Positions 1-15,288 of a stretch of DNA of 64,000 nucleotides are shown in pieces (position 1 is the stretch's first letter; each line of letters opens with the position of its first letter). The position numbers were made by a program, and so were the translations under genes. The notes beneath the pieces were generated by a model. That model was not told the origin of the DNA and made no database searches. It saw only the letters and a program-made list of their open reading frames with translations. This DNA is from Naegleria gruberi (taxonomy: Eukaryota). The stretch lies in the NCBI GenBank assembly GCA_000004985.1, contig GG738873.1. The stretch is one strand, 5' to 3'.

Positions 1-1
1 A

Positions 2-751
2 GAATATTTCTACCTGTACGGAGGGGTGGTAAATAACACTATCTCTAATGCTATCCATAGATGCAAAACATCTGATCTGGAAAGTGGATGGGAGCTTACT
101 AGATTCAAACTTCCTTATAATGTATCAGCTGGTCAATCATTACTGGTAGATGACTTTTTCTATATTTTTGGTGGTCTTGTTAGTCTAAGTGATGACTCTG
201 ATAGCCCAAAGTTAAGTCTCAACGTTACTGACATGATTTTGAGATTCCACATCTCTAATCCCTTCACTCCTGAAATACTATCACAAAGATTACCACTAGG
301 TGTTTATAGTGGTCAAATTGCTAGAGTTAAGGATTATTTGTACATATTTGGGGGAAGAACTCAAGATCCAAATGCACCATACAGCGATATCTTGAAAGCG
401 TCCTATTTCAAACCTACCGTATTTGAAAACTCTTACTCTGTTTTGCCATACCAAGTTACAGATGGTTCGTTAATAGTTACAGAAAACTTTGTTGTTATAT
501 TTGGTGGCTTTTACAGTGGTCTTTACCCATACAATGCAGGAAGATTCAACTATGAAATTGTATCAACCCCATCTGATGAGCCTGTTGGTTCTTGGATGGT
601 GACTGATTATAAGATTCCAGGATTAATGAGGGCGACCCCTTCAATCATGGGTTCAACACTTTCTCTGTTCGGAGAGGATGTCAGAATGGTCAACACATTC
701 CCTCTCTCCAACAGAACTTTCACCATGTTTAACTGCACATTCTTGTTGTAA
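2..751 (+). CDS. Kelch-repeat beta-propeller protein, C-terminal portion; the 5' end lies outside the window
   Basis: The frame is open from position 2 (EYFYLYGGVVNNT...). The track 'M' at 26 is a GTG. Kelch blade motifs recur about every 50 aa (FYLYGG, FYIFGG, LYIFGG, VVIFGG) with W/Y-rich strands, giving at least 4 blades. Several N-x-S/T sequons are present. TAA stop at 749-751, with AATAAA shortly downstream. Confidence 0.6.
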   Translation, partial: EYFYLYGGVVNNTISNAIHRCKTSDLESGWELTRFKLPYNVSAGQSLLVDDFFYIFGGLVSLSDDSDSPKLSLNVTDMILRFHISNPFTPEILSQRLPLGVYSGQIARVKDYLYIFGGRTQDPNAPYSDILKASYFKPTVFENSYSVLPYQVTDGSLIVTENFVVIFGGFYSGLYPYNAGRFNYEIVSTPSDEPVGSWMVTDYKIPGLMRATPSIMGSTLSLFGEDVRMVNTFPLSNRTFTMFNCTFLL

Positions 752-1152
752 TAAAATTGTAAATTATTCTGTCATCAATCAATGACCTTTGTTGAACAGA
801 AAATAATTGTAATGTGATCATTTAATAGATTGAAGGTACAAAATGTTTTGTTTGGTCCTTTTCTAATTAAGGAGTAGAACTAAAACAGAAAGTGTTGATG
901 GAAAACTTTAAAACCAACAAACTCAAAGAAGAATAAAAAAAAACCAATAGTTTAATATAGAATGCTTTCTAATATGAGGGACGATGAGACCACAGAGAGA
1001 GGTGGTTTTGATGATTACCAGGAACCTTTTGACCAATTTCTTGAGAGCAGAAAAAGAAATTTGTCAGAATTATATAGAGATGTACTATAGACATCCAAGA
1101 TGAAGATCAAGTTACGGTTTCGGGATCGTCGAGAAAAATTTACTCAACACGT

Positions 1153-1398
1153 GTGTCTATTAAGAAATCTGACATTGAACTGAATTCCCTAGATGACATC
1201 AGTGACATGCCGCTACCACAACCTTTTTTTAAGCTAATAGAGAAATCCAAAATTCTATATTTGGATATTGGTACTGGTTCTTTCAAGTCTGGTAAGACAA
1301 TCACGGGTGAGTTCATACGGAGTAACTTTCATATATTTGAAAATGGTTTGCAATATTTTCCATACCAGCTACTATACCACAAGGAAAAGAAAGAATAG
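1153..1398 (+). CDS. ORF carrying an actin-fold (ASKHA/Hsp70-type) phosphate-1 motif; probable 5' exon or tandem N-terminal duplicate of the following ORF
   Basis: ILYLDIGTGSFKSGKT resembles the Hsp70 IDLGTTxS phosphate-1 loop. The track start is a GTG; the first in-frame ATG is at 1204 (MPLPQPFFKLIEKSKILYLDIGTGS). Strong donor-like GGTAAGA (1291) and GGTGAGT (1306) lie just after the motif. I could not find a phase-compatible splice to the next ORF. Confidence 0.3.
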   Translation: MSIKKSDIELNSLDDISDMPLPQPFFKLIEKSKILYLDIGTGSFKSGKTITGEFIRSNFHIFENGLQYFPYQLLYHKEKKE

Positions 1399-1975
1399 TG
1401 AAGAAGATACCGATTCACAAGGACACACTATGTACTTGGACCTAGGACACGGTACGACTGATTATACTGTCATGTCATATGATCAAAACCAAAAGAAATT
1501 CATTTTGAAAGATAGTGGTGGGTGGCCTTCTGGACTCTCATGGATTCAAAATTTGATCATGAGAGAGAAGAATTTAACTTTTCAAGAAGCCACCAAACTA
1601 CTAAATAAGCAATTCGACTCACTAGATTCCAATCCTGTTGACGGTATTGCTGATATTCAAGAAAAGATTTATAATGAGTTTGAGAAATTATTACAACCTT
1701 TGTTGTTGGTAATTTTTGAAAATTCAGTTACAAAGGTTTGCTTTGTAGGTGCTTTCATTCATTGCCAATACTTTAGAGAGATTATTAAGAAAATAATTTC
1801 ACACTCTTACATTTCCAAATTTGTAGAGGAAAGAAGAAAGTATTTCAAGGAAGAATTCAAGTTAAAGAAGTTGGAAAAGTTTTCCATCTTCTTCCCTCCA
1901 AAGGCAGGTGCTAGTTGCATCATTCAAGGCTTGATGCGTATGGTTGAGAATTCAAATGGACTCAACCACTGTTAA
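1268..1975 (+). CDS. Hsp70-like truncated ATPase (actin fold); the likely true start is the ATG at 1430
   Basis: MYLDLGHGTTDYTVMSYDQNQKKFILKDSGGWPSG parallels the Hsp70 N-terminus IDLGTTYSCVGV...DQGNRTTPS. The C-terminal part (VCFVGAFIHCQYFREIIKK...FFPPKAGASCIIQGLMRM) parallels Hsp70 LVGGSTRIP...NPDEAVAYGAAIQAAIL. The middle of the nucleotide-binding domain is absent, so this is about 180 aa instead of about 380. Confidence 0.45.
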   Translation: MVLVLSSLVRQSRVSSYGVTFIYLKMVCNIFHTSYYTTRKRKNSEEDTDSQGHTMYLDLGHGTTDYTVMSYDQNQKKFILKDSGGWPSGLSWIQNLIMREKNLTFQEATKLLNKQFDSLDSNPVDGIADIQEKIYNEFEKLLQPLLLVIFENSVTKVCFVGAFIHCQYFREIIKKIISHSYISKFVEERRKYFKEEFKLKKLEKFSIFFPPKAGASCIIQGLMRMVENSNGLNHC

Positions 1976-2227
1976 TTGAAAAAGAATCAACCAGTGACAA
2001 TTCAGTTCCAGTGATGTTACAAGAGATTGCCGAAGAGGGGCAGAAACTTGTTCTTACACCCACATGGGCCTCCTATGTTATGCACGTACTTCAAGATTTC
2101 GAAGTATTCGTCATTACATTGAGCTCTTGTATTGACCCTGAAAGCTTTGAAAATATTAATTTTGATAATTTCAAATACCTTGGAATAAACTAAGCTCCAA
2201 AGATTGGCAGCTGTCACACCCATGTTT

Positions 2228-2836
2228 GATAGAGACTCCATAAGAACAACCAAGAATAATTTTTTGGTCAATGCAGTCATTGATGCAGAAAAAGTGAGAC
2301 TCAACTTCTTCTTTTCTCATGTATCTCACTATTACATGAGTGTATTAGACATTAATAGAACTGGTAGAGTAGAACATATTCCAGTCTGTGGTATTGAACT
2401 ATTGGTATTCAAGGTTCGTGAAACTGAAACCAAGACATGGTATGGTCGTAATTATTATGTGAAAACCATTATTAGAGTGTGTTGCTCCAACCACTTAAAC
2501 AATTCACAAAATCTCATTCCACAGGAATATATTGGCATAATTTCTCCACAAAAGAAAAATGGTAAATATGTTACTGAACTTATTGGTGAGGATAAACCTG
2601 GTGATTATGATACTGTGAAAGCTCTACTGGATTCATTATGTGTTGGTTGTTCCGCAGAGCTTGAGGAAACCAACACCATTCATACAGTGTCCCCACACAC
2701 ATTACCTAAATACCGACGAGCTTTGCAAAATAATAAGCTAATTTGTGGTAATGTCTGCAACAAATGTTACTCAAAATATTGCAACTCATTTAGGACAGAT
2801 GCTTCCTTTTTAAAGAAAAAGAAGTCTAAAAAATAG
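2228..2836 (+). CDS. Hypothetical protein: Cys-rich C-terminal cluster and polybasic tail
   Basis: The track ORF starts on TTG at 2204; the first ATG is at 2228 (MFDRDS...). C-terminal motifs: CVGCSAELEE...LICGNVCNKCYSKYCNSF (C-x2-C ... C-x3-C-x2-C-x4-C) and a KKKKSKK tail. TAG stop at 2834-2836, followed by an A/T-rich 3' region with AATAAA. No recognisable family. Confidence 0.35.
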   Translation, partial: DRDSIRTTKNNFLVNAVIDAEKVRLNFFFSHVSHYYMSVLDINRTGRVEHIPVCGIELLVFKVRETETKTWYGRNYYVKTIIRVCCSNHLNNSQNLIPQEYIGIISPQKKNGKYVTELIGEDKPGDYDTVKALLDSLCVGCSAELEETNTIHTVSPHTLPKYRRALQNNKLICGNVCNKCYSKYCNSFRTDASFLKKKKSKK

Positions 2837-3324
2837 TCTTGTAAAATACTTGTAAATAATAAATTAAAATAATATATCAAATTGTTTAAAATGGTACCAT
2901 TTTTTCATTGAGGAAAGCTCGCTTCTTCTAATGAATGTTTCTCATGGAATAGATAATTATTTGGTAGATAATGGATGAATGACATGATGAAAATCTGATA
3001 ACAAATATGATGTTTATCAAATAGTACCTCTTTTAATATTCAATGTTCATCATCTTTGGATATCTTTGTTCTATTTCACCCATAATTCGCCAGCCCGCTA
3101 ACAGTTTTCACAAATCTGCCACCCATGTAATGGCACTCCATCCTTCAGGTGGATTTCTTCTCATTATTCAGTTCTTCTTTCTTGGTTCATACTTCAGGTG
3201 GTAAATCTTCTTTCTCCTCCTTTAATACTTTTTTTAACCAATAAAAACGAAAACAATGAGCAAGTACGCCCTTAATGATTGTGTTATAGTCTGTCTAACA
3301 AACCAATCAACAGAACTTTCAAAA

Positions 3325-3925
3325 ATATTTCAAAAATATTGGATCAACATCAGGTACATCATGCCTCTGTTGATTCTTGGAGTAGTTTCACATCTATTAA
3401 CTCCAAGAATTTCACCACATCATCTCATCATCATTTAAATAGTAGTATTAATAGTAATTTTTGGAATTTAATTGTTCATCATGATTTGGAAATAATTTTA
3501 TTATTCGGAAACATTCAAGTTGGTACATCATCATCGGAACAACTACCAACCATCATCATTGTTATTTATCATCATTACAATAGTAATATTTGTGGAAATA
3601 AATCTGATAATAGTAATATTTTAGTGAAATTCAATATTTTTCACTAAAATCATCATCACTACCAGATTTATATGATAATTTAGAAAACTTTCAATCTAGT
3701 ATTGTTCAGCATGGTCGATATATATTAGGTAAAATTACTTCCGAACATTTCCCTATTGGTTATCATAATGTTAGGTACATGTATATATTTCAACACCATA
3801 TCTCAACCTGTACTTCACCAACTTGAAAAATGTCTTTCATCACTACTATTCAAATACATAATAAACAATATATTTATTATCAGATTTTCCTAGTTTTGTG
3901 TTTTTACCAACTTCGGGTATTCATA
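3325..3925 (+). repeat. Direct-repeat copy A (about 600 bp, His-codon-rich CATCAT stretches); homologous to 8957-9560
   Basis: Collinear blocks are shared with copy B, for example gtttcacatct, aatagtagta(tt)aatagt, ccaaccatcatca, atttgtggaaat(a)aat, ttttcactaaa(a/t)tcatcatca, agtattgttc(a/g)g(c/a)atggtc(g/a)ata, tgtacttcaccaa, ataataaaca..atatttattat. About 70-75% identity by eye, same orientation. Confidence 0.7.
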
Positions 3926-5195
3926 GTCACCAATCATTATTCATGCCAAAAGTACACAGTCAATCTTCTTGGAACATTAATAAACTTTTATTAGTACTAT
4001 TGCAGATGTACAATATCAATTATTTCGTATTGTTTCGTTGAAATCATGAAGATCTTGATTTTTCTGTTTTTAATTAAATTTCACATCACATACACCATAT
4101 TTGTTGATAGTTACATATTCGCATTACCAAACCGAATTTATTTAGTACGCATAAATTTTATTCAATTTTATTGGTAAAATTATGCGAATTATTACGAATA
4201 AAAATACTATTTATTATTGTATTTTTAAATTAATTAACTGAAAATTATTGCCAATATTTATGGGTAATAATTCATGCAGAATGAAAATTGGTTGAGAGCA
4301 ATAAGACCTGGAAATCTGATCACACTGCACACACTATTAATCTTTGAAAGAAGAAGTGGCAACTGAGTGAATAAATAATTTGAACATAATGATTCGTAAC
4401 ACAACTCTCCAAGCACAAAAATTTCATCACAACAAACAACAGTATCCCTAATTGAGATATCTTCCCAATAAATCTATCGAATTGAATATACATTCCAACC
4501 TTAAGTGAGGATTTTCTAGCATAAAAAGTGCACAATCTTCAAAAATGTGTTGCCCAATGATAATTCGGAAATTGGCCATTTTCTTTTACAAAACAATACG
4601 GATTGAAATTTTGTAAATTGGATCAAAAGTTGAAAATAGATTCTTCTTTCTACAAAGGAGGTTTTTATTGTAAATTAAAAAGCTTTTTTCCATTTGGAAG
4701 AGTATACTTTGTTGATATTTCAATTAAATCATCCATTGCTTACTTTTAAATCTCTCTTCTTCCCAAGATTGTTCGTTTACACCTTTCCTTGCAATTCTAT
4801 TTTGTTTAGAATCTGCAATTTTAGGTAATTCAGGTAATTTCTCAACAATATCTTTCATTTCTGAATGCTCTCTCCTTTTAAATGAGTGTACACTCGCTTC
4901 AGGGCATTTAACAAGGTATTCATCAAATATTTTTGAAAATTAAGGTTGATTTTCTTTGTTTTGTATATTCTTTTTTTCAAAATATTCTTTTAGTGTTAAG
5001 CACATGTGTTTTGTGATTGCTTGATCATTCGTTCAAAATTAATCTCAAATGAAATTGCTGCAAATCCATCTTCTTGTTTGTATTCAAAATTAATCATTGC
5101 TTTTTTCCTTTCGAGTAATATGTATAGTAACAAGGAATTTCGCTAAAAGTTGATTCAGGGACCATGTATTTCAACATATCTCTAAGGAAATCGTA

Positions 5196-5580
5196 CCCAC
5201 TTTTACAAAATATCAAACACCAAATCATATCTGTGGCAATGTTTTTCCCACTTTTTTCTAGTGCTCCCTCTTTAAAAGAGGATATGCTTGGTTAAAGTCA
5301 CCACCACAAAATTCAATATTCGATATTAAGTAGTTGAGCGAAAAATCACTTTTCCCAAAAAGGTATATGATTTCATAACTCACTAATTATCTCAATTAAA
5401 ACAAAAGATTAAATATTCAAAAATGACCAGGATATAGTATACATGATATGAAACCATCCATGCAAAATTCAAGATTTATACCATGAATCAAACTACATAT
5501 TTCCTTTTAAAGAGGGTGCACTAGAAAAAAGCGGGAAGATATGGCACATCCGATTCTTTGTGAAATATTTCCGAAACTGG
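5196..5580. repeat. Foldback / MITE-like inverted repeat (about 85-bp arms, about 210-bp loop)
   Basis: The reverse complement of 5196-5285 (..catatcctcttttaaagagggagcactagaaaaaagtgggaaaaacattgccacagatatgatttggtgtttgatattttgtaaaagtgg) aligns with 5496-5580 (catatttccttttaaagagggtgcactagaaaaaagcgggaagatatggcacatccgattctttgtgaaatatttccgaaactgg) at about 80% identity. Confidence 0.5.
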
Positions 5581-6111
5581 AATTATTGAAAAGGGAGTTT
5601 CAATTGTATTAGCAATCAAATTAACTTTCCTGTCTTTTCACCTTCAAACATTGCTTTGAACAACTTACTGTAATTTTCAACAAGGAAAAAATTCATCAAG
5701 TTTGATAAAAAATAGAAAAGTTTCATCTACAATATTCTTGCATCTGCTCACACAATTCCCACCACAAACATGTTGATGGTAATATCACATCGTTGTTTCT
5801 TGTCCCTTTCTGGTTGGAGGGCCGTCAATTGCAGGAATTGTTGATTATTATTGGATGGTATTATTGTTGTTGGTTTAACACTTAGTGGAGAGGCTACAAC
5901 AAATTTAATCATCCCAAAGTGACTCTACTCTTCCAATCTATTCAAGTTTCAACATTGTGTGTTGTGGATATATTACATTATTGAGATACACACATGTATT
6001 ATTGAGATGATTAGTTGAGTGGATGATATTTCTTCAGTTAATTCTGGAATGAAGAAGGGAAAAACACTGGAAATCATTTTGGATAAAGTTATGTGATTTT
6101 AAGAGAATAGT

Positions 6112-6283
6112 AACATAGCAAGACTAGCTGGTGGAGAATTTTTAAGCTTACCATCCCAGCGCTGGGATGGTCAAAACCAGCTAGACAACATCAAAAACTC
6201 GCGACTAAAAATAATCAGCTGGTAAAAACTGACTTCGCAGATTTCAAGTAGCCAAAAAACAATTTTCCAGTCTTGCTATGTTG
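6112..6283. other. Compound nested palindrome, including a perfect 20-bp palindrome ccatcccagcgctgggatgg (6151-6170)
   Basis: Outer inverted repeat: aacatagcaagactag (6112-6127) pairs with ccagtcttgctatgtt (6268-6283), 15/16. Inner repeat: (ga)ctagctgg(tgg) pairs with ccagctag(aca). Centre: the perfect palindrome ccatcccag|cg|ctgggatgg. The region is GC-richer than its surroundings and lies about 400-550 bp upstream of the YR start. Confidence 0.4.
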
Positions 6284-6670
6284 AGGATAGGGATGAACCT
6301 TTTAATATTTGTCATAAGTGATTGAACAGTATTGTTAATTTGAGTTGATTAATTTTCCAATTAATTGTGTCAAGAGTTGATTTTTTGAAATAAGCTCTTG
6401 CAAAGTTAACATGTATATTCTAGAGAATTCCCATTGGTGGCAGTAACAAATTTTTTTGTCAATACACAAATTCAAAGTTTAAAAAATAATTGTGAAAAAG
6501 ATAAAATGTTATTTTTCTTTACTGTGCAACAGTGGCAAAACATTTCCACCACGAGTGAGGTACGAACGAGCTGGTGGATGATTTTTGCGCGATTTGTTGC
6601 GAAGTAAGAACAGCACTTTTTCTCACGAACAAATATTCCACTGATCTCTGGATATTATTCATTCAAAAAA

Positions 6671-7942
6671 ATGTCTCAAGAGGTTGATGATCTTGCCAGC
6701 GACCTGTTGCTAGAAGAGTTTGATAGTCTCACTGTAACAGGGGAGCAGTCTTTCAACTTTGTTCTTGGAGAAAATAGTATTCAAGCAGTCAAAACAAGGA
6801 AAAACTACAACAATCACAATATGGCACTCAAGGATTTTGCTCTTGAAAATCCAGATGTAAATCTGCAAGATTTACAGGTTGGTTGGTTGAAAGATTATTT
6901 TCAATTCCTCCATCAGAATAAGAAAGTAACTGGTCAAACATTATGGCAATATCACTCCAGTCTTGCAAAGCTGTATGCATGTAATTACAATCTTTCGATT
7001 AAGAATGTTGCCAATTATTCAGTTCTGTCTAGTTTCATCAAAGAATTAGAGAAAAACAGTGTAGACAGCACCGCAGGTGCTGAAGATATTCCATTAAGCA
7101 CAGTAATTGGTGTTCTCTCTCAATACCCAGAAGATGGATCAAATATTATGAAAAAGGCTTTTTTTGTATTCACCACAATAAGCTGTAAGAGATGTGATGA
7201 TGCTCATTGTTTACAATTTCATCATTTAACATTCAAAGAAGATTCAATCGATTTTGATATCTCACAAACTGCAACCAATCCAACTTCCAAAAAAACCAAG
7301 ACAGATGCCTGCACTGGTTGTATTGTCAAAAGCAATGTTCTAGAAATATGTCCCTTTAGAATTTTTAAGAAATACACTGATCAAATTGAAGACAAGAAAG
7401 GTCCTGTATTTAGGAGATGGGTTGGTAAAAAGGGTGGTGGTTATTTCGGAAAACAAGCAGTTGGTATTAACACCATGTACAGTTTCTTCCAAGATATTTT
7501 GAAAAGTGTTATTGAAGTATGTCCAGAGGACATACAAATTGAAGAAAGAACTGGTGCTAGAGCACCAGAACACCTTCGTTCCAACAAGACATCCACAAAA
7601 ATTGGTCTTGCTCGTTATACAGGACACACAGGAAGAAAAACAGCTGGTACCATCATTTCCACCATTGCTGCAATGACTGATCTTGAAAGAAAGAAATATG
7701 GTGATTGGAAGAATATGAAAACGGTTGAAACCTACAGCAACAACAATCCTGAAACCAGAAAAATTGCTAGCAAGAAGGTTGTTGATCATTTATCAGATGC
7801 TTTTAAAAGATCCAATGATGAAGAAGAAGAAAGTCAATATGCTCCTGTAGCAAAAAAGAGCAAGTCTTCCGAATCAAGCTTCAGTAATGATGGAAAGACA
7901 TTCGTCTTCAAAAACTGCTCAAATATCACAATAAACTTCTAA
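6671..7942 (+). CDS. Tyrosine recombinase (site-specific integrase, Cre/Crypton-like); intact 423 aa
   Basis: ATG start in an A-rich context, TAA stop, no interruptions. N-terminal integrase SAM-like core-binding domain (..KNYNNHNMALKDFALEN..LQVGWLKDYFQFL..TGQTLWQYHSSLAKLY). Catalytic hexad recognisable by Cre spacing: R174 (ISCKRCDD), K~210 (SKKTKTD), H319-x-x-R322 (TGHTGRKTAG), W346 (YGDWKN) and Y355 (TVETY). H to W is 27 residues and W to Y is 9, versus 26 and 9 in Cre. Confidence 0.8.
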   Translation: MSQEVDDLASDLLLEEFDSLTVTGEQSFNFVLGENSIQAVKTRKNYNNHNMALKDFALENPDVNLQDLQVGWLKDYFQFLHQNKKVTGQTLWQYHSSLAKLYACNYNLSIKNVANYSVLSSFIKELEKNSVDSTAGAEDIPLSTVIGVLSQYPEDGSNIMKKAFFVFTTISCKRCDDAHCLQFHHLTFKEDSIDFDISQTATNPTSKKTKTDACTGCIVKSNVLEICPFRIFKKYTDQIEDKKGPVFRRWVGKKGGGYFGKQAVGINTMYSFFQDILKSVIEVCPEDIQIEERTGARAPEHLRSNKTSTKIGLARYTGHTGRKTAGTIISTIAAMTDLERKKYGDWKNMKTVETYSNNNPETRKIASKKVVDHLSDAFKRSNDEEEESQYAPVAKKSKSSESSFSNDGKTFVFKNCSNITINF

Positions 7943-8956
7943 CATTTTTATTTCCAGTAAAAAGTGGTGTTATGCACTCATTTATGCCAGCACAGTTGGA
8001 ACTCGGAACAAGAAGAAATAAGCAAGGACGCTGTTATGCACTCACTGTTCGGAGAGGATTATGTTAACTCGCGAGCAGTCCATAACAGGTCCTGGAGTGA
8101 GAAAAAACAATTTAATTTAATCGTAAGTTAGATTTTAATAGCTAATAGTTTGTTTAATTTTAATGTTCAGATTGATGAAATAGTGTTGAACTGTTGCCGA
8201 GCTTATAAGAAGAAGAATTTGAAAGAATTGACGGTGTGCCGGTAAATCCTGTCTAACGGGATCCGTCAGATGTAATAAGCTGTCAAATGGGACAGTCAGC
8301 AGTAAGAGGGAGCAAGAATGGAATTAAGGGAAATACTAAAAATTCTCAATTGTAGAATAATCACTAAAATCAAAGATTACACTCTTTCTGTCTCAAATTT
8401 AAGAATGACATGATATAATTTGACTAAATTGATTAAAACACTGTTGGGGAACTACCCTTCTTTTTTAGAGAAGTTTCCTTCTCAAACAATTCAGGTAAAT
8501 AGTAAACTGTGGAAAGTTTAAATTTGATTTTTTATTGAAAATGAAAAATATGGATTAATTGATATGAGTGTGATTACTATAATGTGCAAGATGTTGAAAA
8601 AGTTGGTTATCTTTGAAATTCAATTTAAAAGTGCACTAAGAAAGCAAATGCTGAACTAGATGAGTTGATACAAATAAACGGTGAGACGGGCAACGGGATG
8701 AACGGGATTCAGGCGTTTCTTATTCTAAACGGGAGATTCTCTCCGCTTAATACTACAAGGTGGCAATTCAAATATGGAGAGAGAGCTTAGTAACATTAAT
8801 AAAATGAATGAGACATAATTACTTTTTGAATTTTCCTTTTATATTTGAAACTTTGACTCTGCTTACTTTCAATTGTTTGTTTAATATGGCTTGCTTGACT
8901 GAAGAATAAGCAATAACTAACACATCCAAACATCACCAGACTGGATTTTGAAGAAA

Positions 8957-9560
8957 AAATATTTCAACATCTAGTACGTGATGTACTTTGATGATTTACG
9001 GAGTGGTTTCACATCTTTATACCACAATAATTTCAGCTCGTCATCTCTACATCATCTATATAATAGTAGTAATAGTGATTTTTTATTGGAAAATTATCAT
9101 CATGAAATTAGAAATTATTTTTCATCATGGAAAAATTCATGTTGGTGATACCATCATCTGATCATTTACCAACCATCATCAATGATATTTTCCATCGATA
9201 TAATAATAGTATTTGTGGAAATTAATTTTCAGTAATTTAATTTTAGTTGAAAATCACCATTTTCACTAAATTCATCATCAGTGTGGAATCTACTGTACAA
9301 ATTGGAAATCTGTCAACATAGTATTGTTCGGAATGGTCAATAGTATCAGAAAAGATTTTGTCCGATGACTTTTGGTCAAGTTATGATAGGGAAAGGTATG
9401 TGTGAAATTTGAAAATACACATTATACTACCCATCATGTACTTCACCAAATCAAAAAGTTTCTTCTAGTAGTACTATTTAAATTGATAATAAACATCATA
9501 TTTATTATAATTTATTCCTTTTCTTTTGTGTTGGTCAAGTTCCGGTTGGGTTGACTAAGA
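8957..9560 (+). repeat. Direct-repeat copy B, homologous to 3325-3925
   Basis: Same collinear anchor blocks as copy A, offset by about 5.62-5.63 kb. Copy B lacks the long His-rich ORFs seen in copy A, so those ORFs are not conserved coding sequence. Confidence 0.7.
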
Positions 9561-10071
9561 ATTGGTTATTTACTCGCCCAAATTAAATTTCCAAATCATG
9601 TAACTTTCCCATGTATTAGTAAATATCAAATTAATAATAAATTTCACTTTTTTTTTAATTTTTTATATAAGGCAGTCCTTAACACTCTTTTTTTCCCTTA
9701 ATTCTAAATAACTCTTGGATCAGATGACGAAACCTGAATTTTTTGAATAATTATGGATATATATAAATAATGACAATGCTACTAACTGTAATTGACATGT
9801 TTTATTATTTGCGAATAAACTTGAAACAAATCTATTCAAAGATTTGCTAATTTGTTAGTTGAAATTACAAAATCAAACAATGAAACTTGATCTGGTAACA
9901 TATATAAATGCACACATCGAGTGGGGAAAGTTTCATGAAATAATAATGTGAAATTTGATCTTGGGAATGAAATCGTTAAGAACAAGTAGATTAAAGCCAA
10001 CAACAAATGGAATAGCCTATTTTATTCAATTCATATTAGAACAATTTTAGAATGTTACTGTGTTATTGAGC

Positions 10072-10716
10072 TTAATATAATTTAGACTTCAAATGTAACA
10101 TTTCCATCATCTTTTGCAAGCCTTTGGATTGAATTTCTTGTAGACGAGGATAGTTACGAGAGTTGTGAATGACAGATTCAAATCGAGCCATCAAAACTTG
10201 AACTCTATTCAACAACGCCTCATTGGAAGAGTAATGACGAAGTGTTTTGGTTGAGACAAAACTTATGACATCTCCATCGGATAGTCTATCACCAACTTCG
10301 TAGTTACGTCTAATCTCCTTGATAGTAGTTAGACCCCAATGTTTACCAGTGAAATCCTCATCAGCGGATTCCTCATCAAGGTCTTCATCAAGTTGATTAG
10401 CTTGTTGCAGAATAGGAGGAACAGCTTCAAGATGCTTTATTCTCTCACCCAAAGAAGTGATGGCGTTGAAAATAGCATCAAGGTTCTTTTCAGAACCAGC
10501 TTGGTTGTTATCCAAGGTTTTGCTTGTTGGGTCAACCACAGAGGGGAGTGAAGCTGAGCTACCATTGTCAGTTACTAGGATGTAACCTGACTTGTAGGTA
10601 GAAGTTGAAGATTTGCTTACTGAAACTCTTTGACGAATGTTGGAGATATTCGCTTTGCTTGGTGTTTGAACCATTTCAATATACTTAATTTTTTTGAGCA
10701 TAAAATTATTTATCAA
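10072..10716 (-). CDS. Hypothetical protein (about 214 aa, Ser/Thr-rich N-terminal part, acidic middle); probably the terminal exon of a minus-strand gene
   Basis: Long ORF of non-repetitive composition ending at a TAA. The track start is a TTG; the first ATG gives MLKKIKYIEM. Upstream on the minus strand a GAC-AAG|GTAATA donor-like site (about 10823) and ..ATTGAG|TTG acceptor-like site (about 10717) could join the 10775-10963 ORF. No family recognised. Confidence 0.45.
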   Translation of the reverse strand: MINNFMLKKIKYIEMVQTPSKANISNIRQRVSVSKSSTSTYKSGYILVTDNGSSASLPSVVDPTSKTLDNNQAGSEKNLDAIFNAITSLGERIKHLEAVPPILQQANQLDEDLDEESADEDFTGKHWGLTTIKEIRRNYEVGDRLSDGDVISFVSTKTLRHYSSNEALLNRVQVLMARFESVIHNSRNYPRLQEIQSKGLQKMMEMLHLKSKLY

Positions 10717-10778
10717 CTCAATTTTATTGTTTACAATTTGTCGAAATGCTAACGTTGCATCGTTCCTCGCAACTCTAC
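10628..10778. repeat. About 150-bp segment (5' end and first codons of the 10072-10716 gene) duplicated at 13243-13390
   Basis: ..ctttgcttggtgtttgaaccatttcaatatacttaatttttttgagcataaaattatttatcaactcaattttattgtttacaatttgtcgaaatgctaacgttgcatcgttcctcgcaact.. is near-identical to the 13243-13390 copy. Confidence 0.7.
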
Positions 10779-10963
10779 ATTATTGAATCTTCTGTAGCCT
10801 TGTTGATTGTTGGATTGATAAGTATTACCTTGTCCTTGGTTGAAGTTGTTGTAGTTGTAGCCAGCTTGTCTAGTATTGTATCTAGTGAGGAACTTACGAA
10901 AATTAAGGGTTCTGCTAGCCCATTTGCTGACTTTTTCAATAGTTTCTGTGTTTGAATGGGCAT
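10775..10963 (-). CDS. Possible upstream exon of the 10072-10716 gene (MPIQTQKLLKKSANGLAEPLIFVSSSLDTILDKLATTTTTSTKDK...)
   Basis: Short ORF whose 3' part contains AAG|GTAATA, a consensus-like donor, in frame. Otherwise unsupported. Confidence 0.2.
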   Translation of the reverse strand: MPIQTQKLLKKSANGLAEPLIFVSSSLDTILDKLATTTTTSTKDKVILINPTINKATEDSIM

Positions 10964-11826
10964 TAAAAATGACTTTGAAGCAGCTGAAAACTTCTCTAAC
11001 AGCTACAAATCAGGAGGTTCACTTAACCAAATCACCTCCAAACAACAAGAGAAGACGATTAAATCTGCTGAAAAAGTAAAAACAGCAGAAGATTAGATTT
11101 AACTCAGAAATATTCTAAATAAATTCAAATCCTTGAAGAATAAGTGGTAAATCAAGAATATCACTCTCTCAAACGCTTGCAGATTTCAATGACTCACCAA
11201 ACATTCTTTGGTAAGAGTCGATGATGTGGTTTTTAAACCAATCATCTAGTTCATCAGCAACTCTTGCACTTTTACCAGAAACCTCTTCAGATGGGTTGGA
11301 CTCAAACAATTCCATCGAAGAAGCGAGAGTAGAAGTACTTTGTGAACCAACCTTGGCGTTGTTTGAGTCTTTGTCAGGTGATATCTTTTGCTGATTGTTC
11401 TTTTTCGTGTCTTGAAGGCATAGCAGAACTATTAGATGAATTTGAGGTGGAAGGAGTTAGAATAATAACTCGTTTCTCGCTACCTGCAGAAGGTGAGCTA
11501 AGGTCTTTCGTTTTCTTGTTGTTCTTTGGTGTAGTTGGTGTTTTGTAATTCTAGAGTGAAACAATTTGTTGAACGTGTAGAATGTATGTGTTCTGAATGA
11601 TTATAATAAATTGAATGTTATTTGCTTAAATTTATTGAGTTTCATGTTCAAAAAATTTATCTAAACTAAATGTCTTCAAGAAACATTTTAACTTCTGCTT
11701 CTAAAGCAAGAAATGATAGGTCCCACCCTGTTCTTATCGAAGTTTACTGAGATAAAGTAGTGTTTCTTGAAAACAACAATTGAATAAACTAATAATAGAA
11801 AGTATGCTCAAAAAAATTGTCATACT

Positions 11827-12954
11827 ATGGTCGCTAAGAAGCCTCAAGATATTGACTCCTCTTTATCTGATGAAGATCTCCCAGCAGTTGAAGTAGAATA
11901 CCTCATAACACTAGTGAAAGCAAGAAAACAACAAGCTGCTAAGAAGCTTAGAAAGTTAAAGGCCATGTCACCTGTAGCTAATAGAAATAAGCGCAAACAA
12001 TTTACTTCAGTTTCATCATCTAACAGTGCCTTAGATGATGGTATTTCAACTGTTGTTTCCAGTTCGTTGTTAAACAATTCAACATTGTTGGATAGTTCTT
12101 CAACTGCACCCTCTTCGTCAAACAATTCGTCTTCTTCCAATTCAGGTAGAGATAGTTTTACCAGTAGTTCATCTGAACATGATATCATGGTGATCAAAGC
12201 CCAAATGCAAGAAATGATTGGAGTTTTGAGAACCGTAACAGGAAATATCTCTGAACTTACTAAGAAAGTTCAGGAGAGAGAAGAAGAATCAGATGATGAT
12301 TTTGTTAATCCAGAAGCTATATCTTTAGAAGTTTGGTTACGTCAAACTTATAGAGACCTTAGAAGTTCTTACAATGTTCCTTCATCTATTGGAGATGATT
12401 TATTACTTTCTGCAGTATCCTCCGAGATACTTAAAGACCGTAAACAAGAGGAGACCAAGAGAAGAATTCAATATTTGCTCCTTAAATACAAGGATGTGAT
12501 TTCCAAGTTTGCCCCAGACATTAGATTGGATGAGATTAACAGTATTGGTTATTCTAAACTAGTAGAGTTAACTCAAATCAAAATTGAATTGTTGGAATAT
12601 GCATTGAATTCTCCACTTGATTTTACAGTCATGACAGAGATTACAGAACTTTGTAGAATGATTTGCAAAGTTGAAGCCCTCTTCCTTAAAGAAGGTTTAC
12701 AAGTTTCCACTTTCGATGTTGGTAGAGAATTCCTTAACAGATACATTTCTACTAATAGTTTCGAAACTGCTGCCGAAAGTGAACTTCATAATATTAGAAC
12801 AACATATCATTACTACAAAGCAACCAAGCAGCAACAAGGTCCAAAGGGAATTACCAAGAAGTATTCTAAGAAGAAACCGTTTCAAAAGAAAAACAATAAG
12901 GGTCAAGGAAACGATGGTAAATTCCAAGGAAAAGATAAGGATAAGTCAGAATGA
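11827..12954 (+). CDS. Hypothetical Ser-rich / Lys-rich protein (375 aa), intronless
   Basis: True ATG start (ctATGgtcgct) and TGA stop. The N-terminus is acidic with a basic stretch (KARKQQAAKKLRKLK). A long Ser/Asn low-complexity region is followed by a predicted helical C-terminal half and a polybasic tail (KKYSKKKPFQKKNNKGQG). No family recognised. Overlapping ORFs on the opposite strand are treated as shadows. Confidence 0.5.
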   Translation: MVAKKPQDIDSSLSDEDLPAVEVEYLITLVKARKQQAAKKLRKLKAMSPVANRNKRKQFTSVSSSNSALDDGISTVVSSSLLNNSTLLDSSSTAPSSSNNSSSSNSGRDSFTSSSSEHDIMVIKAQMQEMIGVLRTVTGNISELTKKVQEREEESDDDFVNPEAISLEVWLRQTYRDLRSSYNVPSSIGDDLLLSAVSSEILKDRKQEETKRRIQYLLLKYKDVISKFAPDIRLDEINSIGYSKLVELTQIKIELLEYALNSPLDFTVMTEITELCRMICKVEALFLKEGLQVSTFDVGREFLNRYISTNSFETAAESELHNIRTTYHYYKATKQQQGPKGITKKYSKKKPFQKKNNKGQGNDGKFQGKDKDKSE

Positions 12955-13130
12955 CTCTTCCACTAATAAAGATTTTTATCCAATCAAAGCAGGTTCTATA
13001 ACTGAATCACCAATTTGGTGAAACAGTTACCTGACTCTAAAACCCATTTGTCTCTAATCAATTTGTTACTCTTTTTATTATAATCTATGAAGAACATTTA
13101 ACTTGATAAATTTTTCAAATTATAAATATT

Positions 13131-13180
13131 ATTTCTCCAAATAAAACAATAAAGAATTTCGTTGATAAACCAATGGGTAG
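13131..13180 (+). repeat. 48-bp perfect direct repeat, copy 1 (atttctccaaataaaacaataaagaatttcgttgataaaccaatgggt)
   Basis: 47-48 nt identical to 13394-13443, separated by about 263 bp. Confidence 0.8.
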
Positions 13181-13242
13181 AAGCTCACTCAACATATTCT
13201 TCATCCAAAGGATGAGGTATGTTGCTCGGAAATGCTGCCTTT

Positions 13243-13390
13243 TAGGTCATTGACTTTATTCAGCAATGATTTTGCTTGGTGTGTTTACCATGTTTCTTAA
13301 TTTTTTTGAGCATAAAAATTATTTATCAACTCAATTTTATTGTTTACAATTTGTCGAAATACTAACGTTGCATCGTTCCTCGCAACTAGC
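13243..13390. pseudogene. Degenerate pseudo-copy of the 5' end of the 10072-10716 gene
   Basis: About 80% identity to 10628-10778. The reverse-complement reading has a 1-nt insertion (aatttttatgctc versus aattttatgctc) that destroys the ORF. It carries a consensus TACTAAC (13360-13366) followed by ..cgcaaCTAG on the plus strand. Confidence 0.55.
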
Positions 13391-13393
13391 CAT

Positions 13394-13443
13394 ATTTCTC
13401 CAAATAAAACAATAAAGAATTTCGTTGATAAACCAATGGGTTA
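13394..13443 (+). repeat. 48-bp perfect direct repeat, copy 2, abutting the stop codon of the YR relic
   Basis: Identical to 13131-13178. The last 3 nt (tta, 13441-13443) are the reverse-complement TAA stop of the minus-strand YR fragment. Confidence 0.8.
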
Positions 13444-13680
13444 GTCCAGAGAAAATAGAGTGTTAGTGAAATTCTTGCCAGCTAGGCCTTCAGATCTAAG
13501 GTAAGGAAATAAACTTTTTTCCTTTTTATGTCTTGCACCGACCATTAGATCAGTTGTAGACATACCCTTTCTGAGTCCTTCTGTGATAGCACCTATTCTA
13601 AGGCTGTGACCTGAGACTGTTACGCCTTGATCTACTATACCCACTGCATTCTTTAGTATTTTTGAAATACCATCTGAATC
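13441..13680 (-). pseudogene. Tyrosine-recombinase C-terminal catalytic fragment (integrase/DIRS-like H-x-x-R...H...Y variant); 5'-truncated relic or terminal exon
   Basis: The open frame is only about 80 codons (..DSDGISKILKNAVGIVDQGVTVSGHSLRIGAITEGLRKGMSTTDLMVGARHKKEKSLFPYLRSEGLAGKNFTNTLFSLD*). GHSLR is the box II H-x-x-R. The second His is 26 residues after the first, and the Tyr (FPYLR) is 9 after that, which is exact integrase/Cre spacing. The track start is a GTG and a stop lies immediately upstream. AT-rich non-coding DNA and microsatellites follow on the 5' side. Confidence 0.6.
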
Positions 13681-13780
13681 TTAGTAGTACCGTTTCAGTT
13701 TTACCTAGTTGTAATAAACACCGGAAATTTATTTATGTTTTTAACTATAAAAGCTGAAAGTAGTCAAATGTTGATATTTG

Positions 13781-13782
<2 letters not shown>

Positions 13783-13812
<30 letters not shown>
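13783..13812. repeat. (AT)n microsatellite, about 15 units
   Basis: Seen directly in the sequence. Confidence 0.9.
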
Positions 13813-13815
<3 letters not shown>

Positions 13816-14301
13816 AATAGATGTTAGATATTAGTTGTTCCATTTATTTTTAAACCTATCACTCCATCAACCTCCATGAATCTAGTTGTCTATTTCTTGT
13901 TGTAAGAGTTTTTCTTTGTTTTAATAAACAACTATCACAACTCTAATTTTACTACTTCTAATAGCAGTGTTTTTGTAATATTTTTACAAAGTTTGTTCTT
14001 TCTTTGAATTCATTTTCTTTGGATTTACCATAAAGATTATTACTTCCAATCAATAATCTTCATAATGATAATACCAACTTTAGAAGATTTTTAAAAATTA
14101 ATGGTTTTTTATATTTTATATATTACTTTGTTAAGCTTTTCTAAATTTCAAATCGATAAATTTTTGAAAATTTATTTTAGCTTCTTAATTTTCAATTAAT
14201 TTCATTATCTTTATATCTAAATCACTTTTAAATGCTTTTTCAGATAAACCAATTAAACCACCATCTTATAAACCAACTTGCAACAAAAATTTTTTCGGAT
14301 G

Positions 14302-14327
14302 TATATATATATATATATATATATATA
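14302..14327. repeat. (TA)n microsatellite, about 13 units
   Basis: Seen directly in the sequence. Confidence 0.9.
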
Positions 14328-14366
14328 AATGCATGCGAAAATTTTTATTTTATTTATATTAAATAT

Positions 14367-15288
14367 CTAATATGACAAACATATCCCACCAACGCATGTA
14401 TGAAAATTCGTATTTTTNNNNNNNNNNNNNNNNNNNNNNNNNNNNNNNNNNNNNNNNNNNNNNNNNNTATTATATGTGAAATTACCAATTGTAATATTAT
14501 TGCTTGTAAAGTTACTAATTGTAAAGTTACTAATTGTAATGTTATCACTCGTAAGGTTACGGATTGTTAAATTAGTATATGTGAAATTACCAATTGTAAT
14601 GTTATCACTTGTAAAGTTACTATTTGTAAAGTTACCAATTGTAATATTATCACTCGTAAGGTTAGTGTTTGTAAAGTTACTGCTTGTTGAATTAGTATAT
14701 GTGTAATTACCAATTGTAATATTATCACTTGTAAAGTTACTATTTGTAAAGTTACTGATCGTTAAATTAGTATATGTGTAATTACCACTTGTGGTATTCT
14801 CATATGTAAAATTATAATAGGTAAAATTGTTGAGTGTCAAATTCGGTATTTCCGTAATTCTCATCACCTCGTTTTCTGGATAATTTGCATCATTTTGGCA
14901 ATTTTGTCCCGTAATAGAATTTCTAAAACATTTACAAAAATCAGGCTTGGTACAATTACCATTTCCACTGCAAACAAGTGGATCTTCTGATTTAACACCA
15001 AAACAAATTGGTAAAGAACAATTTGATCCATAATATCCTTCTCTGCAAGTGGTTACATTTAAGAGACCTGTTGCATTCTTCTTGGAGCAAAGATACAAAT
15101 TATCACCTGTTGGGTTTGTACAATCAATTTCAAGATCAAGAGTTCCATTAATCTTTGTATTATTACATTTACCTTCAGGATTGGTACATGTCGCCATACT
15201 AACATTTGTTTGACACTGTGTGCCAATAAAACCAACTTTGCAAGAACATTGATTTGGTTTCTCACAATAACCATTTCCTGAACAAACC
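14367..15288 (-). CDS. Secreted or surface glycoprotein: EGF-like Cys-rich domains followed by a tandem N-x-T sequon repeat stalk; partial (runs into gaps)
   Basis: The frame is open from the 15289 gap, which lies upstream of the track 'M' at 15197. At least 3 EGF-like modules: VCSGNGYCEKPNQCSCKVGFIGTQCQ; CTNPTGDNLYLC..TCREGYYGSNCSLPIC; CSGNGNCTKPDFCKCFRNSITGQNCQ. About 40 N-x-T/S sequons follow in about 7-aa-period repeats (NFTNSNFTSDNITIGNFTYTN...). The gene is interrupted by the 50-N gap and ends ..HTCVGGICLSY* at 14367. Confidence 0.6.
14418..14467. other. Assembly gap (50 N) inside the glycoprotein gene
   Basis: Run of n. Confidence 0.95.
14468..14830 (-). repeat. Coding tandem repeat (about 21-nt / 7-aa period nested in about 75-120-nt higher-order units) encoding the N-x-T sequon array
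   Basis: Repeated blocks: ttgtaaagttact(a/g)(a/t)ttgtaa(a/t)gttatcact(c/t)gtaa(a/g)gttac.. and tatgtg(a/t)aattaccaattgtaat(a/g)ttatcac. The assembly gap sits at the repeat edge, consistent with collapse. Confidence 0.75.

Follow-up and report, generated by a model that had tools for sequence, protein, structure and literature searches.

What is a short sequence doing in two perfect copies directly downstream of a broken tyrosine recombinase (YR) gene in Naegleria gruberi, and what is the segment that the two copies enclose? The stretch of DNA that was analysed (the window) is 64,000 nucleotides long, but real sequence is found only at positions 1–15288, as 15289–64000 are all N. The window is thus a short N. 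gruberi scaffold of 15.3 kb, rich in repeats and with a 50-N assembly gap at 14418–14467. An earlier note on this locus had tied the repeats to the neighbouring recombinase sequences and had offered two explanations, an attachment-site-like sequence duplicated by a site-specific recombinase or a footprint of template-switch repair. In both cases the locus was taken to be an active rearrangement hotspot.

Anatomy of the repeats and their surroundings

Repeat finding and self-BLAST show that the repeat has a full length of 49 bp, with 100% identical copies at 13130–13178 and 13393–13441 that are 263 bp apart from start to start. The earlier note had described a 48-mer that occurs twice, identically, at this distance. 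The two perfect copies and the spacing are confirmed, and only the length has to be corrected to 49 bp. When zero to three mismatches are allowed, the 48-mer has exactly two occurrences in the window, where none is expected (100 shuffles). It is also correct that the second copy ends at the stop codon of the YR fragment, as 13441 is the last base of the minus-strand TAA at 13443..13441.

Read along the minus strand, the order is the YR C-terminus, its stop codon, a first 49-nt copy (B1), a segment of 214 nt (A2), a second 49-nt copy (B2) and flanking DNA. Within the DIRS order, the layout A1-[ORFs]-B1-A2-B2, with the internal repeats downstream of the YR, is what defines PAT-like, Ngaro and VIPER elements (PMC4157794; PMC8547959; PMC13465315; PMC7192593). 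We conclude that a DIRS-order retrotransposon with split direct repeats, truncated on its 5' side, very probably has its 3' end here, at 13130–13441 together with the YR fragment up to about 13683. The features, named after this layout, are as follows.

13444 to 13680, minus strand: C-terminal 79 codons of the YR (ORF3) of the putative 5'-truncated family-2 element; stop codon TAA at 13443..13441, upstream breakpoint at about 13681–13686.
13393 to 13441, minus strand: B1, the internal B copy, 100% identical to 13130–13178; B1 and the YR stop overlap by one base, the first of B1 and the last of the stop.
13321 to 13433, minus strand: long imperfect predicted hairpin that takes in most of B1 plus the initial 72 nt of A2; the B|A junction lies in its stem, close to the apex.
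13300 to 13313, minus strand: conserved 14-mer ATGCTCAAAAAAAT, located in the leader of A and separated from the 3' end of the hairpin by 7 nt.
13179 to 13392, minus strand: A2, the putative internal copy of the element 5' end; it comprises a leader, one arm of the hairpin, the conserved 14-mer and a degenerate start of ORF1.
13130 to 13178, minus strand: B2, the terminal B copy and putative element 3' end; a perfect copy of B1.
11729 to 12965, plus strand: 5' fragment of family 1 with A1, a complete Gag-like ORF1 (11827–12954) and the first 17 ORF2 codons; cut off at about 12965.
10075 to 10779, minus strand: independent 5' fragment of family 2, consisting of an A1-type leader (10779..10705), which matches A2, and a partial Gag-like ORF1 (10704..10072).

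The identity of the YR fragment, whose listed frame is 13644..13441, is clear from several comparisons. All but one of its 79 residues (78/79) match the C-terminus of P0010, an intact N. gruberi YR of 302 amino acids, and it carries both a GHSLRIG (H-x-x-R) box and a PYLR tyrosine. It is also 51% identical (tblastn, E 3.6e-22) to residues 216–294 of ORF3 in L001, a 4.3-kb metagenome contig that holds a near-complete retroelement. A search with the L001 recombinase returned ten relatives, P0010 among them. Single-sequence searches of the PDB were empty, and Cre is reached by profile only: the YR family profile matches Cre residues 286–327, the H-x-x-R...W...Y region, with an E-value of 1e-4. 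The Pfam family Phage_integrase is matched by seven of nine YR family members (best E 3.5e-10). Judged by these similarities, the fragment is the recombinase C-terminus of a second, diverged family, here called family 2. Scans of viral contigs with the YR profile and for the B sequence found nothing.

Between the two B copies, the earlier note had seen a 150-bp duplicate, 80% identical, of the 5' end of the gene at 10072–10716. The duplicate is real. However, the alignment of 13271–13387 to 10654–10774 has 122 columns at 90% identity, with one indel of 5 nt and one of 1 nt, and most of it is leader. The best conserved part, 73 nt at 13315–13387 with 99% identity, lies upstream of the ATG of the 10704..10072 gene and is non-coding; what was copied of the gene, apart from the leader, is only about 15 codons. 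The last 92 bp of A2 (13179–13270) show no clear similarity to the 10704..10072 gene, i.e., to ORF1 of the other family-2 fragment. At the opposite end, the similarity between A2 and this independent fragment begins no more than 5 nt from the B1|A2 junction, which suggests that A2 starts where the element starts. The window copy itself is without A1, and it is the first ~125 nt of A2 that match, at 90%, the 5' end of this separate family-2 copy.

The 10704..10072 gene is 45% identical, when translated, to the ORF1 region of another retroelement locus, L002. The match stops at about 10078 while ORF1 of L002 goes on, and the gene is therefore a 5' fragment only. It belongs to family 2, the same family as the YR fragment. 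The possibility that the two are halves of one element, split by an insertion, was considered and rejected, as on their strand the 3' part comes before the 5' part.

The third fragment, on the plus strand, is of family 1. Its ORF1 shares 96.5% protein identity with ORF1 of L001, residues 1–17 of the L001 ORF2 match at 12914–12964, and the fragment is collinear at the DNA level with L001 60–1288. The ORF at 11827–12954 is also 97% identical to a multi-copy N. gruberi "predicted protein" (XP_002679187). Three element fragments thus lie within 3.6 kb, at 10075–10779 (minus), 11729–12965 (plus) and 13130–13683 (minus), and at least two diverged element families are nested in one cluster of 4 kb. 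No reverse transcriptase is left in the window, as judged by tblastn with the L001 proteins. Rfam and tRNA scans of 1–15288 gave zero matches, i.e., no known RNA family and no tRNA-type primer site.

Beyond B2, from 13129 downward, tblastx finds no similarity to any element locus. Elements of this type are expected to insert without a target-site duplication and to share a short sequence with the target at the junction; the flanks of the three visible element ends have no short sequence in common. The DNA between the fragments, 164 bp at 12966–13129 and ~950 bp at 10780–11728, matches none of the fetched element loci. A minus-strand ORF (10963..10775) stops exactly at the 5' boundary of the family-2 fragment.

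Other features of the scaffold lie further away. At 6671–7942 on the plus strand there is an intact ORF of 423 amino acids. Its N-terminal part matches a phage-integrase SAM-like domain (Pfam, E 6.8e-7), and its C-terminal region has the pattern GHTGRK...Y. The alignment with the DIRS-type recombinase profile is only weak, no RT adjoins the ORF, and it may be a Crypton-like or a domesticated tyrosine recombinase. This ORF is bracketed by a direct repeat of ~600 bp (3332–3918 and 8955–9546; 71% identity, 5.6 kb apart), which is non-coding, since there are stop codons in all frames, and which could be a dispersed repeat or the old terminal repeats of a larger element. On the other side of the locus, two (TA)n microsatellites at 13783–13812 and 14299–14330, ~490 bp apart, form an inverted pair. 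Further on, a tandem array with a 15-bp period (14453–14873) lies inside a minus-strand ORF (14367–15197) that encodes N-x-T/S-rich repeats and EGF-like cysteine patterns; the assembly gap interrupts this ORF.

Related elements and the split-repeat layout

L001 gives the most complete view of an element. Its Gag-like ORF1 (159–1277) is overlapped by ORF2 (1237–3150), which matches RVT_1 (E 3e-26), weakly resembles RNase H and also has a Dam-like match, and the last frame, ORF3 (3153–4046), is the tyrosine recombinase. Past the YR stop there are ~40 nt starting with ATCCATTAGT, and then a copy of the element's own 5' end: the 246 nt at 4079–4324 are 97% identical to 61–306, including the leader and the start of ORF1. 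This copy reaches the end of the contig, which ends inside A2 and therefore does not cover B2. That the copy results from a tandem or circular assembly was rejected, since the 60 nt upstream of A1 are unrelated to B.

In the more distant relatives, the layout is found again. L005 is a JGI metagenome contig whose YR is 34% identical to P0010 (for comparison, the L002 recombinase is 65% identical). Here the YR stop at 516–518 is followed by a 72-nt repeat (531–602), 539 bp of other sequence and an identical 72-nt repeat (1142–1213) that coincides with the end of the contig. L006 is more distant still. Its YR stop is at 1242–1244, and a 19-nt exact repeat starts ~50 nt past the stop (1294–1312) and recurs ~1 kb later (2351–2369), again at the contig end; going by this arrangement, L006 probably has the B-A-B layout as well. 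As the same layout directly follows the YR stop in the independent L001 and L005, and probably in L006, it appears to be a heritable part of the element.

The start of B is also conserved. In L001, L005 and L010, the motif AYCCATTRGT either coincides with the YR stop or follows it closely, and in window family 2 it reads ACCCATTGGT. A B start near the YR stop is hence common to four families, and this is the reason why B1 abuts the stop codon in the window. In L010 and L011, no usable 3' end was seen. L011, a Naegleria fowleri-like contig, has a YR frame that breaks after the H-x-x-R box, at ~780–930, and continues into a stretch resembling a leader, TTTTCATGCTCAAATTTTTT; a deletion that joined the YR gene to A2 may have given rise to this form.

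The ORF2 proteins of the relatives help to place the elements among the known types. RVT_1 is found in L001, L002, L003 and L007 with E-values between 7e-18 and 4e-27, and RT_RNaseH in L007 (E 4.5e-6). All six ORF2 C-terminal regions match Dam (PF05869) at the same profile positions, 9–119, with E-values of 3.7e-6 to 7.8e-4, but the scores of 19.6–27.2 bits are below the Pfam cut-off of 28.1. L007 has in addition two very long overlapping frames at 626–3732 (626–2833 and 889–3732), in different reading frames, and the one that runs past ORF2 includes the recombinase region.

In a structure-based scheme, the combination of a methyltransferase-like domain and split direct repeats is characteristic of the PAT-like elements, i.e., Pat1 of Panagrellus redivivus, Toc and Kangaroo, which have a Gag-like ORF, an RT/RNase H with a methyltransferase-like domain and a YR in the arrangement A1...B1-A2-B2 (PMC4157794). 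The Naegleria elements resemble them in that RVT_1 and the Dam-like match go together in all six ORF2 sequences that were compared, and in that the YR is the last ORF before B-A-B. They differ from them in that ORF1 is without a zinc knuckle and the methyltransferase matches are below the Pfam threshold. In the searchable literature, we found no description of a long B|A junction hairpin, such as the Naegleria elements have, for PAT-like elements. Ngaro and VIPER have the same A1-[ORFs]-B1A2B2 order with the internal repeats downstream of the YR, and 5'-truncated copies and solo AB repeats are common among them (PMC8547959; PMC13465315). However, they are without a methyltransferase domain, and the Dam-like matches, weak but consistent, argue against Ngaro without settling the matter. 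We therefore hold only loosely to the assignment of the Naegleria elements as PAT-like, as the Dam matches on which it depends are sub-threshold.

DIRS-1 of Dictyostelium discoideum is similar in another way, as an internal sequence just inside its 3' end stores the joined termini (PMC7192593). Its copies are also often fragmented and nested in each other, as in the window. However, the terminal repeats of DIRS-1 are inverted and its internal copy of the ends (ICR) is complementary, while the internal copy in Naegleria is direct. The inverted terminal repeats and ICR of DIRS1-like elements were not found here, and the repeats of the window, L001 and L005 are all direct. The two designs nevertheless overlap through the partial self-complementarity of the B|A junction, although canonical inverted terminal repeats are absent. 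Like the LTRs of LTR retrotransposons, the Naegleria repeats would be made anew whenever the element is reverse transcribed, so that both copies start out identical in a new insertion and diverge later. They are different from LTRs in being split and unequal, with A on the 5' side and B-A-B on the 3' side, and integration would be the work of a tyrosine recombinase and not of a DDE integrase.

DIRS-like copies were already known from a survey of N. gruberi that put their number at seven and left their status uncertain (PMC3266345). We found no description of the structure of these elements in the searchable literature.

The junction hairpin and the leader 14-mer

Most of B is the inverted complement of a part of A (25–40 nt), and the B|A junction therefore lies in a long hairpin. 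In the window (family 2) the predicted structure has a folding energy of −36.8 kcal/mol (z = −5.1). The family-1 hairpin of L001 (4042–4143) reaches −33.7 kcal/mol (z = −6.6), and that of L005 (~567–664) −36.7 kcal/mol (z = −3.3). In each of the three cases, none of 200 shuffled sequences folds as well. The hairpin arms are also found as inverted repeats in the window and in L001. For the distant L006 a hairpin could not be demonstrated (z = 0.06), and it is claimed here for three families only.

The inner stem, GAAAYAUG...UAGURUUUC, is conserved and includes one compensatory change from C-G to U-A, while the outer arms differ between the families. MAFFT and RNAalifold on the three sequences recovered this inner stem only, and three families are too few for covariation statistics.

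The 14-mer ATGCTCAAAAAAAT is invariant and present in the leader of all element families seen, 7–23 nt downstream of the junction hairpin. It has three exact copies in the window, at 10688–10701 (minus), 11804–11817 (plus) and 13300–13313 (minus), where 0.01 would be expected by chance, and is also found in L001 (136–149 and 4154–4167), L005 (688–701) and L012 (10–23). In family 2 it is in frame with ORF1. In two families, however, it opens only a short upstream frame (MLKKIV...), which makes a signal in the nucleic acid or a uORF likelier than a start of ORF1. Possible roles for it are those of a transcription start, a promoter element or a uORF signal.

A functional role of the hairpin and the 14-mer is put forward here as a hypothesis. 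If the hairpin of ~100–115 nt were a required cis-element, either for joining the cDNA ends or for the action of the recombinase, then the internal copy of the ends would be both direct and complementary. The Naegleria elements would in that case be intermediate between the split-direct-repeat architecture of PAT and Ngaro and the ITR-plus-ICR architecture of DIRS-1. Such intermediates have not been observed (PMC4157794), and we regard this as a speculative idea that is rather unlikely to be right.

Origin of the repeats

The retrotransposon reading has to be weighed against the two explanations of the earlier note. The first, spelled out for this locus, would mean that an att-like 49-mer gained its second copy as a site-specific recombinase inserted a small circular DNA (the 214-bp segment), or that it remained after excision. 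The perfect repeats do adjoin recombinase sequence, and the B|A junction lies within the inverted repeat described above, which could bind a recombinase. However, L005 also has B-A-B after its YR stop, as L006 probably does, and these contigs are from different organisms; the A segment of L001, in turn, copies the 5' end of that same element. The layout is thus inherited with the element and not made locally. Moreover, attL and attR would enclose the integrated element in full, while here both 49-mers are downstream of the YR gene and flank 214 bp only. We consider such a duplication very unlikely. A part of the idea survives in another form: by analogy with DIRS-1, the B|A junction would correspond to the joined ends where the recombinase is thought to act, and it is probably a sequence relevant to recombination.

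The other explanation, template-switch repair, here taken together with replication slippage, would mean that a piece of the nearby 10072–10716 gene was copied between two 49-bp copies of a microhomology. In its favour, a donor-like sequence is present on the same strand 2.6 kb away. But a copied piece that is 90% identical and has indels does not fit well with perfect 49-mers if all arose in a single recent event, the starting point of the piece is not arbitrary but is the 5' end of the element family, and the layout recurs in the relatives. This origin is even harder to believe than the first. Template switching as such is part of the published model for the renewal of the repeats; there it takes place during reverse transcription, not during repair. 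An assembly artefact, in which reads from different element copies were collapsed or mis-joined into a false duplication, might be suspected in a scaffold that is short, repeat-rich and gapped. With 312 bp, however, the whole structure fits within a single Sanger read, the 49-bp repeat is separated from the gap by more than 970 bp, and independent metagenome assemblies (L001 and L005) show the same architecture. Among the alternatives, we give this one the least credence.

Thus, the repeats are indeed tied to a recombinase, as the earlier note had it, but in the sense that they belong to a tyrosine-recombinase mobile element: the layout in L001, L005 and probably L006 speaks against a one-off local duplication by integration, excision or repair. 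Nothing at the locus marks an active rearrangement hotspot.

How the two B copies stay identical can be suggested from DIRS-1. In the model for that element, the outer ends are missing from the transcript and are restored from an internal template that copies the ends in joined form, and the ICR has been shown by experiment to be essential for retrotransposition (PMC7192593). An intact Naegleria element would have the order A1-ORF1 (Gag-like)-ORF2 (RT/RNase H/methyltransferase-like)-ORF3 (YR)-B1-A2-B2. If it replicates in the same manner, (i) its transcript would be without the extreme ends, (ii) the internal B1|A2 junction would be a stored direct copy of the joined ends, i.e., of B2 joined to A1, (iii) the reverse transcriptase would use it to rebuild complete ends and the junction, and (iv) the YR would insert the DNA into the genome at the rebuilt junction. 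B1 and B2 would then be renewed together in each retrotransposition, as LTRs are. This mechanism is inferred by analogy.

It follows from this reading that B1 and B2 would be the same because both belong to one insertion and were regenerated together. The perfect identity of B1 and B2, together with the match of 78 out of 79 residues between the YR fragment and an intact gene, indicates that the window copy is a young insertion that lost its 5' part later, with the breakpoint at about 13683. The 10704..10072 gene is part of another family-2 copy, which is why A2 differs from it. The earlier note had set the perfect 48-mers against the diverged duplicate and had concluded that the 48-bp duplication is recent, or maintained, relative to the rest. 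This compares unlike things, one insertion in the case of B1 and B2 and two copies in the case of A2 and the gene. As A2 and the gene come from different insertions, their divergence is uninformative on the age of the 49-mers.

The repeats are therefore best seen as a textbook transposon terminus, with no evidence of ongoing rearrangement. The locus holds an ordinary end of a retrotransposon whose kind is known but little described in this host, and it gives a structural description of DIRS-order elements in N. gruberi (Heterolobosea). The junction hairpin and the leader 14-mer are candidate cis-acting signals in a class of elements whose replication is poorly understood.
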